63,803 bases of DNA, filler included, from Reclinomonas americana ATCC 50394 (GCA_048213135.1; 14 parts of 10 records of this genome joined end to end with filler, not necessarily neighbours in it), one strand, 5' to 3'; numbered from the whole stretch's first letter, positions 1-62,009 are shown. Made by a program: numbers and translations. The notes: generated by a model from the letters alone, not told the origin.

Positions 1-1888
1 TCCGACAGTTGGAGCGTGAGAGGGGCGACAAGGATTCGCATCTGCAGTCTATGACAGCGCTGCTGGCCGAGCGCACTGCACGATTGGCCGAGGCGGAGGG
101 CAAGCTGCACGATCGGGACACGAGACTCGGCGACTTGGCTTCGCAGCTGGAGCAGGCGCGACAGAGGGCGCAGGAGTTGGAGGAGACGGCTCGCGAGTCT
201 GACCGGCTACAGGAGCTGTTTGAGAAGCTGAAGACCGAGGCTGAGGATCTGCAGCGGCGATGTGAAGCGGTTGCGTTGCTCGAGCTTTTATGTTTCTTTG
301 TGCCGCTGCTCATTACCCGTCGCCACAGGCTGAAGCGCAGGCCGCGGACTTTGCTGGAGCCTTGGAGGAGCGTGATTCGCAGCTGCAGAGCACGAAGCGT
401 GAGCTGGAGGCTGCCGGCCAGTTGCGACCACAGCTGCAGCATGCAAACGACGAGTTGCAAAAGGTGTCGCGCGAGCGCGATGACCTCGAAGAGGCGGCCG
501 ATCAGTTCAAGAAGCAGTTCCAGGCCGCCACTCTGCAGCTTACAGCGGCGCAGGTTCGCCTCTGCTCCTGTCCACGAGGTTGTTGTCTTTCGATCATGTC
601 ATCGCTCACGTGCGTGTGTATGTGTATGTGTGTGTTCAGGAAACCGCCAAGCAACTGCAGAGCGAGCGAGAGGCAGCGCAGGCAGAGCAGCGAATGGAGC
701 CGGTGCTGAAAAAGGAAAATGCGCTGCTGCGCTCCGTGATCGAGCAGCTGAAGGCCGAAATGGTGCGCAGGAAACAAGTGCACGATGACGAGGTATATAC
801 ACTTGTGTGTGAGCGCCGCGCTCTCTTCCGTGCATCCGTTCTCATTCTTTTTATCTCTCTGTCGTGCGTGTAGTTGGCGGCCATGCGAACCAACTTGCAG
901 CAGTTGGAGAACCAACTGGCGGTGACTGCCGTCACGGGTGCGCCAGCGGCCACAGCCGCTGAGCCGCTGATGGACGACGAAATGGCACAGTACCAGGGCA
1001 CCGGCGTCGACTACGCCGATGTGTACCAGCCGTCGGATCCGTCGGATCCGCTGGACTTGGCAGTCAGTCAGGTGTGTGTGCTCGAAGGAGGAAGATGACT
1101 ACGGACTGTGACCACTCACATCCTTGTGTATGATGCCGCAGCTGTTGAGCTCGCTGAACTGCTCGGTGCAAATTGCCTTTGAGCGAGTGGAGCGCGGTGT
1201 GTATCAGGCTGATCGGCAGCTGAAGCTGCGGCTCGTCGACGGCGAGGTGATGATTCGCAAGAAGAGCGGCCTGGAACCGCTGCAGGCCTATTTGGAGCGA
1301 CTGTACGCGCCGTACATGGAGCGCACGTCGGACAGGCATCGCGCCTCGCTGACGGACGTTAGCTCTTTCAGTCAACCACCACTGTCGGCACGAGGCTCCT
1401 CTGCACCGGCATCGCGCTCGTCGTCTGCTGGCCGCAACTTTGCCTCACCTCGACGCCAAGCACCACCACCACCACCATCANNNNNNNNNNNNNNNNNNNN
1501 NNNNNNNNNNNNNNNNNNNNNNNNTTAATTAATTAANNNNNNNNNNNNNNNNNNNNNNNNNNNNNNNNNNNNNNNNNNNNTCACAACAGCAGCAAAAGCC
1601 GGCATTTGGAGGTGGCGGTGGAGTGCGTCAAGCGACGCCGCCGCGAGGAGCATTTGCACCGCCGAATGGTGTGGCCAATGGCGGTGGTGGTTACTCGAAT
1701 AGGAGGAACCCCGCAAGTACAGCGCCATCTGGTGCCGTTGATGTGCGACAGGCTGCACGCCTACAAAGAGAGGTACGAGACGAGGCAGGCGCTGCGAGAT
1801 GCGAGGGGAGACGATGTGTGAGTGCTGACATTCTTGAGTTTGTGTGCAGGCTCTCAAACGGCAAGTGGATGGCTCGTGGAGACGATAA
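1..1888 (+). CDS. Long coiled-coil protein with a C-terminal GAS2/GAR-like (microtubule-binding) domain; 5' partial, multi-exon, spans a linker gap
   Basis: Heptad-rich E/Q/R/L exons joined by short GT-AG introns (e.g. 270-328). The exon at ~1142-1480 gives 'IAFERVERGVYQADRQLKLRLVDGEVMIRKKSGLEPLQAYLERLY', resembling the GAR-domain pattern. The last exon reads ALKRQVDGSWRR* with TAA at 1886-1888. Confidence 0.6.
1481..1580. other. Artificial contig linker (N44-TTAATTAATTAA-N44), recurring about 14 times
   Basis: An identical 12-mer with stops in all six frames is embedded in Ns at 1525, 4420, 8649, 12945, 14711, 24023, 30264, 38133, 39823, 48140, 59475, 60900 and 62630. Confidence 0.97.
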
Positions 1889-2021
1889 TCGTGACATGTG
1901 TGTTGTGTGTCAATAACTAGGATCACTGTAACTTTCTCTTTTCTTCCCCCGTCTTTCGTTCTTTTCCCCTTTTCAGTGTAAGTTGGCGGAGCTGAGTACA
2001 TCCGACTTAAGTCATTGTTTT

Positions 2022-59800: not shown

Positions 59801-62009
59801 ACTCTGGTTCAGCTCCTGGCGACCGTCTTGGAATGGGAAGCGGGCAATGACGATCTGGCCGAGGTCATTGGAGACGTAGAAGCTCTTCACGTTGTGCGAG
59901 AAGACGCTGACGCGGCCAAAGTCGAGCACGCGGGGGCCTGCAAATGCGGGGGGAAGGGGATTGAGAAACAAGGAAAGGGAAGAGGAATAGGAGAAGAAAA
60001 TGAGAGACGTCGACTCACCAGTGACCACATTCAGCAACTGCTTCGGCGTCAACTCGAGCTTGCACTCGCGCATCTCGGTCGGCGTGTGCGGTTCGCGCTT
60101 GAACTTCTTCTTCACGATGCGGTTCTCGTCGTGCACATGTGTCTTCTTCTTCACCGACTGCGAGGCCAGCAGGCTCTCCGAGGCCAGCACGCCCGCAATC
60201 GGCTTGTCCAAGAACACCGGTGGGTACTCGTCGATGCGAATGTCGAGACGCGGACTGCGCAAGCCGCTGGCAGGCTCCATGCCCAGATCCGTGTCGTTCT
60301 CGTACTTGCTCACCAGCTCCCTCTCGCGCTGTGCGCGCACCTTTTCGGGCGACGGGCCACTGCGGATGAACGAGTTGTAGTGCTGTTCGTGCTCCTTGCG
60401 TGCGACCAGCTGCGTGAGCGCCACTTTCTCGGCCTCGGCCTCCTCCGGGGCACGCATCGATGCACTGAGAATGTCGCTGGCGGCACGCACTACATAGACA
60501 CACAGAGTCAGTCGAAGTGGAAACACAAGAAAGAAACCTCCCTCCCCTGGCAGAGGACGCAACGTGGCGACTGTCGCACAAACGGCCTCTTGGCGGTGGC
60601 GGTGGTGGTGCGGAACTGCGCTGGCTGCAAAAAATTGAGCTTGGGCTGGAAATCCTCTGGCACCTTGTCGGGTCCGCCCACGAGTTTGCGTCGCTGGCCG
60701 ACCTCCTCGCAGGTGCCGGAGACGCGCAGCGGGAGCACCACGGTGCCGTCGCAGATGCGCAGTTCCAGGGTGCCGGTGAAGCGGCCGAGCTGGGAGGGGG
60801 GAAAGGAGAAGGGTGAGGAGAAGGGGAAGGGAAGGGGAGGGAAGGGGAAGGGGAGNNNNNNNNNNNNNNNNNNNNNNNNNNNNNNNNNNNNNNNNNNNNT
60901 TAATTAATTAANNNNNNNNNNNNNNNNNNNNNNNNNNNNNNNNNNNNNNNNNNNNCGAGAAGGGGGAAGAGAGGGGGAGTGAAGGGGGAGAAGGGGAAGA
61001 GAAGGGGGAAGAGCAAGGGGGAAGTGAAGGGGAAGTGAAGAGGGGAAGACATGGAGAGAGAGGCGGCTTATAGGGAAGAGAGGGGAAAGAGACGTGAATG
61101 ACATGGCGGAAGGGAAGGAAGAAAGGGCGAGAGAGGAGAAAGAGGAAAGAGACGGGAAAGAAAGGAGTGGAGAGAAAGAGAGACAATGAAATGGAGAGGA
61201 CAACGACAACAGAGAAGGCAAGAGGCCTTTGATTGACTGGCGCGTCTCTCACAGCGGTCGACAAACCTGTGACGGCAGGAATGTTGCAATGACATTCTGG
61301 CTCTGCAGCGGCAACAGCACGCCCTTGAACGGCCGCGCGGAAAAGTGTGCAATCTTGCCGAACTCATAGTCGACATTGAGCTCGTCGCTGTCGTTCTTGA
61401 TGGTGAACATAATGTCGACGCGCTGATTCGACGACGACTCGCCAAAGCGGAACGAGTTTTGCGAGAGGCTCAGTTTTGGTCGGTGGGCCTGAGTCGAGCA
61501 TGCAATGTGTGAGAGGCACGAATACGGAAGGACACTCCCGCCGACTCACAAACCTTGCCACTGGCCTTCACCACCAGCTGCTGGTCGGTCTCCAACACCG
61601 AGAATGTGAGGTTGGTGTTGAAATCCTCCACGTCGCTGCCGGTAGTCTGGCTCTTCCAGCCGGTGCGGTTAGACGGCTTGACGGGCGGACAGAAGTGGAT
61701 CTGCACTGGGATCTGACCGTAGGCGGGAATGTTGCCCTCGTTTCTGTGACACATGAGAGAGAGAGTGAGCTCCTCCTTCTTCTCCTCCTGTAGCACCCTG
61801 CAACATGCGACGCAACGGTTCGACAACATAAATGGGTTGCGGGTCTCCAGCCGAGGCACCTGGTTCGGAGCCGCCCGTGTCGATCTCGCCCGACATCAAC
61901 TCGTCGGAAGAGGAGGTGACAGCAAACGACGCGGCCGTGGGTGAATTGTTGGCCAGGATGGCCGAAATGGTGCGGTTCTGTCCGTAGAACGCCGACGGGA
62001 AGTACAGGG
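50817..62009 (-). CDS. CFAP47: Cilia- and flagella-associated protein 47 (multiple ASH/Ig-like domains plus a CH domain), 5' partial
   Basis: Repeated ASH-type motifs (I.NP..., GEFWY.L.L). CH region YSVPENVLLTWMTHHF / VTNFDTDLRDCTVFAALF / LLFVLYLYQMLPQFVPK. Also GTADNCLLT and the C-terminal YGKPLVGNLVIDTDEMQWRYEV. Confidence 0.9.

Follow-up and report, generated by a model that had tools for sequence, protein, structure and literature searches.

GTTGCG as a second class of predicted 5′ splice sites in Reclinomonas americana: probably an ordinary donor word displaced one base into the intron

The textbook 5′ arm of U1 small nuclear RNA (snRNA) is ACUUAC. Roca and Krainer reportedly described, in 2009, a shifted (+1) register of U1 base pairing at atypical human 5′ splice sites. 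In the accessible part of a later human study, the shifted register is described for individual sites only, and the bulged and asymmetric-loop registers together are projected for 5.1% of 201,541 sites (Tan et al. 2016, PMC4856993). According to the available portion of a preprint by Roy and Bowser (10.1101/2022.06.08.495308), Entamoeba combines an AACAAAC U1 arm with GUUUGU donors and Mastigamoeba balamuthi an ACGUAC arm with GUGCGC donors, and Thecamonas trahens and Mamiellales have a standard arm despite preferring C at +4. Here we analyzed 63,803 nucleotides (nt), filler included, from Reclinomonas americana ATCC 50394 (GCA_048213135.1), a stretch of joined parts of this genome hereafter called the window, and found that GTTGCG is a second, abundant class of donor, with which about 15% of the predicted introns, roughly one in six, begin.

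These donors resemble the human shifted-register sites, as far as the accessible text of PMC4856993 describes them, in that +5 G is absent, all pairs would be moved by one, +1 G replaces the exon-final G and the cut stays at GU. Unlike the human shifted register, which is rare, one word here accounts for ~15% of the introns of the window, only C-G cores are used, and the fit to a standard arm is poor. The human bulge +2/+3 and asymmetric-loop registers in the same text share with them an extra nucleotide between GU and the +5 G equivalent, but the human bulge keeps the exon register, whereas the exon-final base in the window follows the preference of position −2. The likeness to M. balamuthi, as covered in the available part of the preprint, lies in the preference for +4 C, in GUGCG-type donors as the main class and in ACGUAC as the arm that best fits the donors of the window; the difference is that the main donor here has T at +6, not C. 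The M. balamuthi genome has 60.7% GC and a mean intron of 137 bp (PMC8136499, accessible part), versus ~57% GC over called bases and a median intron of 71 nt in the window. The preprint (10.1101/2022.06.08.495308) describes no shifted class, and the word "shifted" is absent from its text. A literature search, with most subscription journals outside it, gave no description of GTTGCG donors, and its matches were primers, microRNAs and aptamers.

Introns were predicted with a donor-agnostic hidden Markov model (HMM) that demanded only GT/GC...AG ends, gave no score to the first 8 bases of an intron and otherwise relied on coding periodicity and intron composition, on start/stop rules and on a bonus for YAG/CTNAY acceptors. 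A simpler HMM, which lacked the acceptor score and the start/stop rules, was discarded for its implausibly long introns. The donor-agnostic HMM predicted 181 introns, among whose donors the most frequent hexamers were GTGCGT (19), GTTGCG (17), GTTTGT (7) and GTGAGT (6). A first-pass annotation of this DNA had placed GTTGCG introns at 22 sites; all 22 coordinates carry the word on the strand given there. That the word should exceed the expectation from independent position frequencies at donors also held, with 17 observed among 181 donors and 0.8 predicted (binomial p = 1.5e-17). In a stricter subset of the donor-agnostic calls, GTTGCG made up 8 of 67 donors, versus 0.48 expected. Within gene blocks, 17 of 45 sense copies of GTTGCG were used as donors, compared with 164 of 3762 other sense GT dinucleotides (odds ratio 13, p = 5e-12), and the word stood 45 times in sense versus 22 times in antisense. 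Over both strands of the window it occurred 73 times, versus 51.0 ± 7.3 in 100 dinucleotide shuffles (largest 67).

The donor-agnostic calls covered 15 of the 22 sites and added 2 new ones. In a self-trained catalogue, for which a first-order donor model was trained on the output of the finder itself, 171 introns with a median of 71 nt were obtained; 25 began with GTTGCG, comprising 20 of the 22 sites and five new ones. A CTCAC-like branch motif followed by YAG was found 55-290 nt downstream of each of the 22 sites. The estimate of more than 20 GTTGCG introns in the first-pass annotation stands: the finder recovered 21 of 22 sites and homology recovered the remaining one (61816), with the caveat that 15366, 17352, 19397, 22444 and 25487 represent one position in five paralogs. 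The description of the class as dominant was too strong, as the class makes up 9-19% of the predicted introns, depending on the catalogue. These results indicate that GTTGCG(T) forms the genuine 5′ ends of predicted GT-AG introns that are short (about 55-125 nt) and otherwise of the ordinary, major-spliceosome (U2) type.

Donors in two genes were adjudicated against homologs. Every in-frame GT/GC...AG alternative within 60 nt was scored against a homolog profile, which was built from 30 full-length relatives for a large ASH-repeat gene (31 junctions, 939 peptides) and from 18 relatives for ELP1, where the block at 45.7-47.1 kb lay outside the adjudication. The best-scoring donor was the pick of the donor-agnostic model at 22 of the 31 ASH-repeat junctions, and it was GTTGCG at five of the 31 (scores in Table 1). 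The runner-up at 55744, 53296, 52652 and 60563 was always a GC donor three bases on (GTT/GCGT, which adds one Val; the slash marks the exon-intron boundary throughout). Margins over the alternatives were small, yet pointed in the same direction throughout. In ELP1, donor 42032 was again the best alternative, and donor 44396 fell in an unconserved stretch where profile scoring is uninformative, as it also was at several low-scoring junctions. Overall, GTTGCG was the best in-frame alternative in 6 of 6 informative or semi-informative tests in the two genes. In addition, GTTGCG is kept in 5 of 5 tandem paralogs, of which the upstream exon is ~76% and the intron interiors are ~55% identical.

We compared donor classes among the GT introns of 40-200 nt in the self-trained catalogue (150 of 171). 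Donors with G at +5 were assigned to the ordinary register; a donor counted as shifted if it began with GTT and had G at +6 but not at +5. This gave 98 ordinary donors, 29 of the shifted type (24 GTTGCG, 3 GTTTCG and 2 others) and 23 of neither. G at −1 was found in 3 of 29 shifted versus 81 of 98 ordinary donors (p = 1e-12). The shifted −1 position (A14 C4 G3 T8) instead resembled the ordinary −2 position (A43 C20 G8 T27; G vs non-G, p = 0.71), and the shifted +7 (T20 C6 A2 G1, or 69/21/7/3%) matched the ordinary +6 (T63 C22 A9 G4, or 64/22/9/4%). The donor-agnostic catalogue gave the same register pattern. Read from +2, GTTGCGT is T-T-G-C-G-T, versus G-T-G-C-G-T for the ordinary donor. The results support that GTTGCG(T) behaves as GTGCG(T) displaced one base into the intron. 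Since the exon-final base shifts too and −1 G is low, a shifted register is favored over a bulge. The first-pass annotation had already read GTTGCGT as GTGCGT plus one base, in agreement with positions +7 and −1; of the two pairing modes it had offered, the shifted one is retained, and the bulged one fits poorly with the scarcity of −1 G. The other donors with a pyrimidine at +3 that it had set beside this class (G/GTTTGT, G/GTTCGT) fall outside it, in the ordinary register with both +5 G and −1 G.

The remainder of the intron was similar in the two classes. Branch motifs CTCAC/CTCAT/CTGAC were common to both. The acceptor was CAG in 87 of 98 ordinary and 25 of 29 shifted introns (CAG or TAG in 28 of 29 shifted), and CTNAY lay 8-45 nt from the 3′ end in 77 of 98 ordinary and 24 of 29 shifted introns; because the acceptor score of the finder rewarded CTNAY and YAG, this agreement is not independent of the finder. 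Pyrimidine content was alike (0.62 in ordinary and 0.60 in shifted introns), and ordinary and shifted donors were mixed in the same genes. Shifted introns were slightly longer, with a median of 73 versus 67 nt (Mann-Whitney p = 0.03).

Not every core permits the shift, which needs C at the +4-equivalent slot. C occupied this slot in 27 of 29 shifted versus 47 of 98 ordinary donors in the self-trained catalogue (p = 8e-6), and in 19 of 20 versus 33 of 79 in the donor-agnostic one (p = 1e-5). By core, GCG was present in 34 ordinary and 24 shifted donors and TCG in 6 and 3, while the counts were 23 and 0 for GAG, 12 and 1 for TTG, and 9 and 0 for GTG. Sense-strand GTTGAG (7) and GTTGTG (21) were present and never called as donors. 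T stood at +6 in 26 of the 34 ordinary donors with a GCG core. Within the ordinary register of the self-trained catalogue, −1 G was missing in 12 of 26 GTGCGT donors versus 5 of 72 others (p = 3e-5). Because the GCG core tolerates either a missing −1 G or the +1 shift, GCGU behaves as the strongest core, one able to compensate for the loss of the −1 pair or for a mismatch at +1.

Nearest-neighbour duplex energies were calculated for candidate U1 arms. The standard arm bound A/GUUGCGU with −1.4 kcal/mol and the unused A/GUUGAGU with −4.0 kcal/mol. An ACGUAC arm bound A/GUUGCGU with −5.5 kcal/mol, folded exactly in the +1 shifted register, and A/GUUGAGU with −0.8 kcal/mol. We also ranked 16 arms, representing all combinations opposite +3/+4, by the area under the curve (AUC) for catalogued donors versus other sense GT. 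The best of the 16 was AUACGUACCUG, of the ACGUAC type, with an AUC of 0.828 in the self-trained and 0.694 in the donor-agnostic catalogue; the standard arm reached 0.760 and 0.661, respectively. From the C-G core restriction and the strongest core, we predict U1 or a U1 variant with G opposite +4, so that the candidate arm is of the ACGUAC type. The C-G core rule and this prediction are new relative to the first-pass annotation.

On balance, we lean toward the reading that GTTGCG donors form a second class recognized by U1 in a +1 shifted register, limited to C-G cores, with an ACGUAC-type arm predicted; that U1 reads these donors, which arm it carries and how the cut is made are what we infer. 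The recognition word would be that of the commonest ordinary donor, G/GUGCGU, lying one base deeper in the intron. The intron +1 G would substitute for the exon-final G, +2 U would face the U1 position normally paired with +1 G, and +3 to +7 (UGCGU) would occupy the places of +2 to +6. U1 would thus bind in the +1 shifted register, and cleavage would occur one base upstream of the site implied by that register, where the sole available GU lies. Such a shift may cost one mismatch, which only the strongest core, with C and G in the +4/+5-equivalent slots, would tolerate, and the same core alone would commonly dispense with the exon-final G in the ordinary register.

A number of points weigh against the shifted-register reading. 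The catalogues are our own predictions, the donor-agnostic one holds many wrong introns, and the donor model of the self-trained one learned from its own output, so that its proportions are partly self-reinforcing. Of the 29 shifted donors, five belong to paralogs. Profile scores favored GTTGCG over the GTT/GCGT donor by small margins (2.8, 6.5, 5.8 and 0.8 bits, the last for 60563). The shifted −2 position (A16 G6 C5 T2) is unlike the ordinary −3 position (C33 G30 A23 T12), and in the donor-agnostic catalogue the lack of −1 G in 8 of 17 GTGCGT donors versus 15 of 62 others went in the same direction with p = 0.08. As to the arm, the energies ignore pseudouridine and proteins, and the donor-agnostic advantage of ACGUAC is small (0.694 vs 0.678 for the next arms). 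Either arm gives weak predicted binding for three GTTTCG donors (−1.4 and −1.8 kcal/mol). The ACGUAC arm binds G/GUUGCGU still better, with −9.9 kcal/mol in a bulged fold, yet this donor is rare, so binding energy alone leaves the rarity of −1 G unexplained. Finally, since T. trahens and Mamiellales combine +4 C with a standard arm, +4 C alone does not imply a changed U1.

A wider claim is advanced only tentatively. In this lineage, the step that recognizes a 5′ splice site may be routinely uncoupled from the step that cuts it: a retuned, ACGUAC-type U1 would bind one seven-base word, and the cut would fall after (G/GUGCGU) or before (/GUUGCGU) its first base, according solely to the position of GU. 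A bolder form of this idea would have a second, dedicated snRNA read GUUGCGU. If the uncoupling held, about one intron in six would follow exon ends that cannot be G.

Of the other explanations, a gene-prediction artefact would mean that the true introns use other donors and that GTTGCG is a frequent word near exon ends. Many frames are open in GC-rich DNA, and the in-frame GTT/GCGT alternative scored only 0.8-6.5 bits lower, which would suit such an artefact. We nevertheless consider it very improbable: the enrichment arose without donor scoring (17 vs 0.8 expected) and is biased to the sense strand (45 vs 22), GTTGCG came out best in all six homology tests in two genes and is conserved in five diverged paralogs, and a proper branch motif with a CAG follows at the expected spacing. 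A bulged register would leave +1 G and +2 U paired as usual, with one U (+2 or +3) bulged, GCGU pairing as +3 to +6 and the exon register kept. It offers as many base pairs as the shifted register, bulge +2/+3 registers have been validated in human cells (PMC4856993, accessible part), and with −1 G the ACGUAC arm folds G/GUUGCGU with just such a bulge (−9.9 kcal/mol). Such a bulge would, however, keep −1 G favored, whereas −1 G occurs in 3 of 29 shifted donors, compared with 81 of 98 ordinary and 14 of 26 GTGCGT donors, and the shifted −1 distribution copies the ordinary −2 instead; we therefore judge this register quite unlikely.

The same flanking preferences bear on whether the class has its own reader, a second U1 variant or another snRNA with an ACGCAAC-like arm that would work in the ordinary register as a separate donor code. 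The rigidity of the word (GTTGCG in 24 of 29 shifted-type donors) and its near-zero pairing with the standard U1 arm (−1.4 kcal/mol) would fit a dedicated reader, and the available part of the preprint (10.1101/2022.06.08.495308) mentions Physarum as having a mixture of standard and modified U1 variants. But such a reader gives no reason for flanks that follow the ordinary preferences shifted by one (−1 like −2, +7 like +6). A minor core, TCG, appears in both classes at a similar ratio (6:3 vs 34:24), branch site, acceptor and composition are alike in both, and the Rfam scan showed no such RNA gene in the window. We regard a dedicated reader as unlikely. A standard U1 arm with weak or no binding, the need for C-G being read later by U6, U5, proteins or a pyrimidine-pseudouridine contact at +4, seems to us distinctly unlikely. 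In its favor, T. trahens and Mamiellales prefer +4 C with standard arms (10.1101/2022.06.08.495308, available part), and in human a +4U-pseudouridine contact, in some cases C-pseudouridine, supports the +5G-C4 pair (PMC4856993, accessible part). It gives no reason, however, why U (TTG, 12:1) or A (GAG, 23:0) should bar the shift, and the standard arm ranks the unused GUUGAGU over the used GUUGCGU and separates donors from decoys less well.

If the shifted-register reading were confirmed by RNA, this organism would offer many introns whose cleavage site naturally lies one base away from the U1 register, and with them a direct way to test how the cut is set as U1 hands over to U6. The predicted U1 5′ arm is concrete and can be checked. 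The core rule, by which only NCG shifts and only GCG forgoes the exon-final G, offers a quantitative handle on the pairing that a donor needs. Gene finders trained on GTRAGT would mis-annotate about one in six introns, yielding frameshifted or truncated proteins.

The predicted introns that begin with GTTGCG are listed in Table 1. The 27 entries comprise the 25 calls of the self-trained model plus 40238 and 61816, and all 27 have GT...AG ends. Donor 40238 was predicted in the plus-strand parse and dropped only through strand competition. For tandem paralog 5, the acceptor at 25438 is the first CAG and was chosen to align residues with the other paralogs; the models took 25420. In 9 of the 27 introns the word continues as GTTGCGTG, which creates an ordinary-looking GTG... 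donor five bases downstream, out of frame.

Table 1. Predicted introns beginning with GTTGCG in the window. In the donor column a lower-case letter is the exon-final base; "both models" means the donor-agnostic and self-trained models; scores are against the homolog profile of the gene named, best donor vs next other donor.
Position	Strand	Donor	Gene or remark	Evidence	Profile score (bits)
270..328	+	g/GTTGCGT	59 nt	both models	
4891..4949	-	t/GTTGCGT		self-trained model only	
7415..7483	-	t/GTTGCGC	SET-domain gene	Pfam; both models	
13537..13609	-	c/GTTGCGG		both models	
13733..14018	-	g/GTTGCGT	286 nt as modelled, acceptor uncertain	self-trained model only	
15185..15371	-	a/GTTGCGT	tandem paralog 1	self-trained model; paralog comparison	
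16367..16442	-	a/GTTGCGA	absent from first-pass list	self-trained model only	
17289..17357	-	a/GTTGCGC	tandem paralog 2	both models; paralog comparison	
18374..18496	-	c/GTTGCGT	absent from first-pass list	both models	
19329..19402	-	GTTGCG	tandem paralog 3	both models; paralog comparison	
22378..22449	-	GTTGCG	tandem paralog 4	both models; paralog comparison	
25438..25492	-	a/GTTGCGA	tandem paralog 5	both models; paralog comparison	
27512..27579	-	t/GTTGCGT		both models	
32159..32232	+	t/GTTGCGC		acceptor 32232 (donor-agnostic) or 32253 (self-trained)	
35190..35259	+	t/GTTGCGT		self-trained model; donor-agnostic model took 35208	
35893..35954	+	t/GTTGCGT		both models	
36095..36174	+	a/GTTGCGT		self-trained model; donor-agnostic model took 36137	
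38630..38701	+	a/GTTGCGT	directly 5′ of PAS domain	Pfam; both models	
38967..39027	+	a/GTTGCGT	absent from first-pass list	self-trained model only	
40238..40297	+	a/GTTGCGT	last part of cyclase domain	Pfam; plus-strand parse	
41954..42032	-	c/GTTGCGT	ELP1; absent from first-pass list	both models; homology best of 15 in-frame alternatives	126.1 vs 115.1
44326..44396	-	a/GTTGCGC	ELP1; absent from first-pass list	self-trained model; homology uninformative	
52579..52652	-	a/GTTGCGT	ASH-repeat gene	both models; homology best of 42 alternatives	109.6 vs 103.8
53227..53296	-	g/GTTGCGT	ASH-repeat gene	both models; homology best of 21 alternatives	121.8 vs 115.3
55673..55744	-	a/GTTGCGT	ASH-repeat gene	both models; homology best of 37 alternatives	101.7 vs 98.9
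60490..60563	-	c/GTTGCGT	ASH-repeat gene	both models; homology best of 45 alternatives	42.5 vs 41.7
61744..61816	-	c/GTTGCGT	ASH-repeat gene	homology only, best of 58 alternatives	35.8 vs 34.2; model's pick 61804, 26.6

Other kinds of intron were also considered. U12-type introns carry an RTATCCTT donor and a TCCTTAAC branch site. In the window, RTATCCTT occurred once per strand (46246 +, 15743 -), in neither case as a predicted donor, and TCCTTAAC had 0 matches, so U12-type introns were rejected. GTTGCG introns are like them in having a rigid long donor word in a minority of introns, and unlike them in that no U12 signals occur among the donors and the branch motif and acceptor are as in ordinary introns. 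We likewise rejected the recent expansion of a single family of mobile introns, as the bodies of the listed introns are dissimilar by eye and the interiors in the paralogs are ~55% identical. A third frequent donor type is G/GTTTG[TC], which provides 8 of the 31 best ASH-repeat donors (51186-61553, minus strand), 8 of 8 after an exon-final G; these donors (51245, 51450, 51936, 53639, 55199, 55405, 57244 and 61553, all minus strand) are in the ordinary register with +5 G. The ASH-repeat gene also contains a 66-nt GC-AG intron at 52378-52443 (minus strand; CAG/GCAAGT...CGCAG), which scored 116.1 bits against the ASH profile when spliced and 92.6 bits when retained. Being in frame and stop-free, it was called by neither model.

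The window is eukaryotic nuclear DNA, dense in short introns. Contigs are joined by 13 linkers of 100 bases each, composed of 44 N, TTAATTAATTAA and 44 N; the core TTAATTAATTAA carries stops in all six frames. The 13 linker places span 1481-62685 (e.g. 1481-1580 and 4376-4475), and there are seven longer N runs besides. Genes span the joins, so that exons are missing there. Microsatellites (CA, CT and GT runs) adjoin several linker edges. An Rfam scan of the window gave no match that reached the gathering score; with the cut-off relaxed to E up to 5 there were 7 matches of chance level, and no snRNA was among them.

Pfam matches identified a SET-domain gene near 6.0-7.5 kb (minus strand), a PAS and cyclase gene at 38-40.3 kb (plus strand), ELP1 at 41.8-47.9 kb (minus strand) and the large ASH-repeat gene, a flagellar gene, at 51-62 kb (minus strand), whose relatives have ~2900 residues. 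Five tandem paralogs of one gene lie at about 14.8-27.8 kb (minus strand) with intron positions in common, one shared position being ...NLYEKYDMK/intron/CFFMHNLL.... The open reading frames scanned in this paralog family and in the receptor gene at 31-38 kb matched no Pfam family (E up to 1e-5). The predicted exons at 34721-40353 (plus strand) resemble one long gene with two linkers within it, which would have hydrophobic N-terminal stretches, several PAS-like segments and a terminal class III cyclase domain. The best protein matches of ELP1 are from fungi and animals, which proves little about lineage. A metagenome scan gave 5 loci with only 42-49% identity, too distant for comparing intron donors. 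A protein of 194 residues from a run assembly (P0003) showed 84% identity to the exon at 52653-53225 (minus strand), covering 67%, a match indicating that a fairly close relative is present in public reads.

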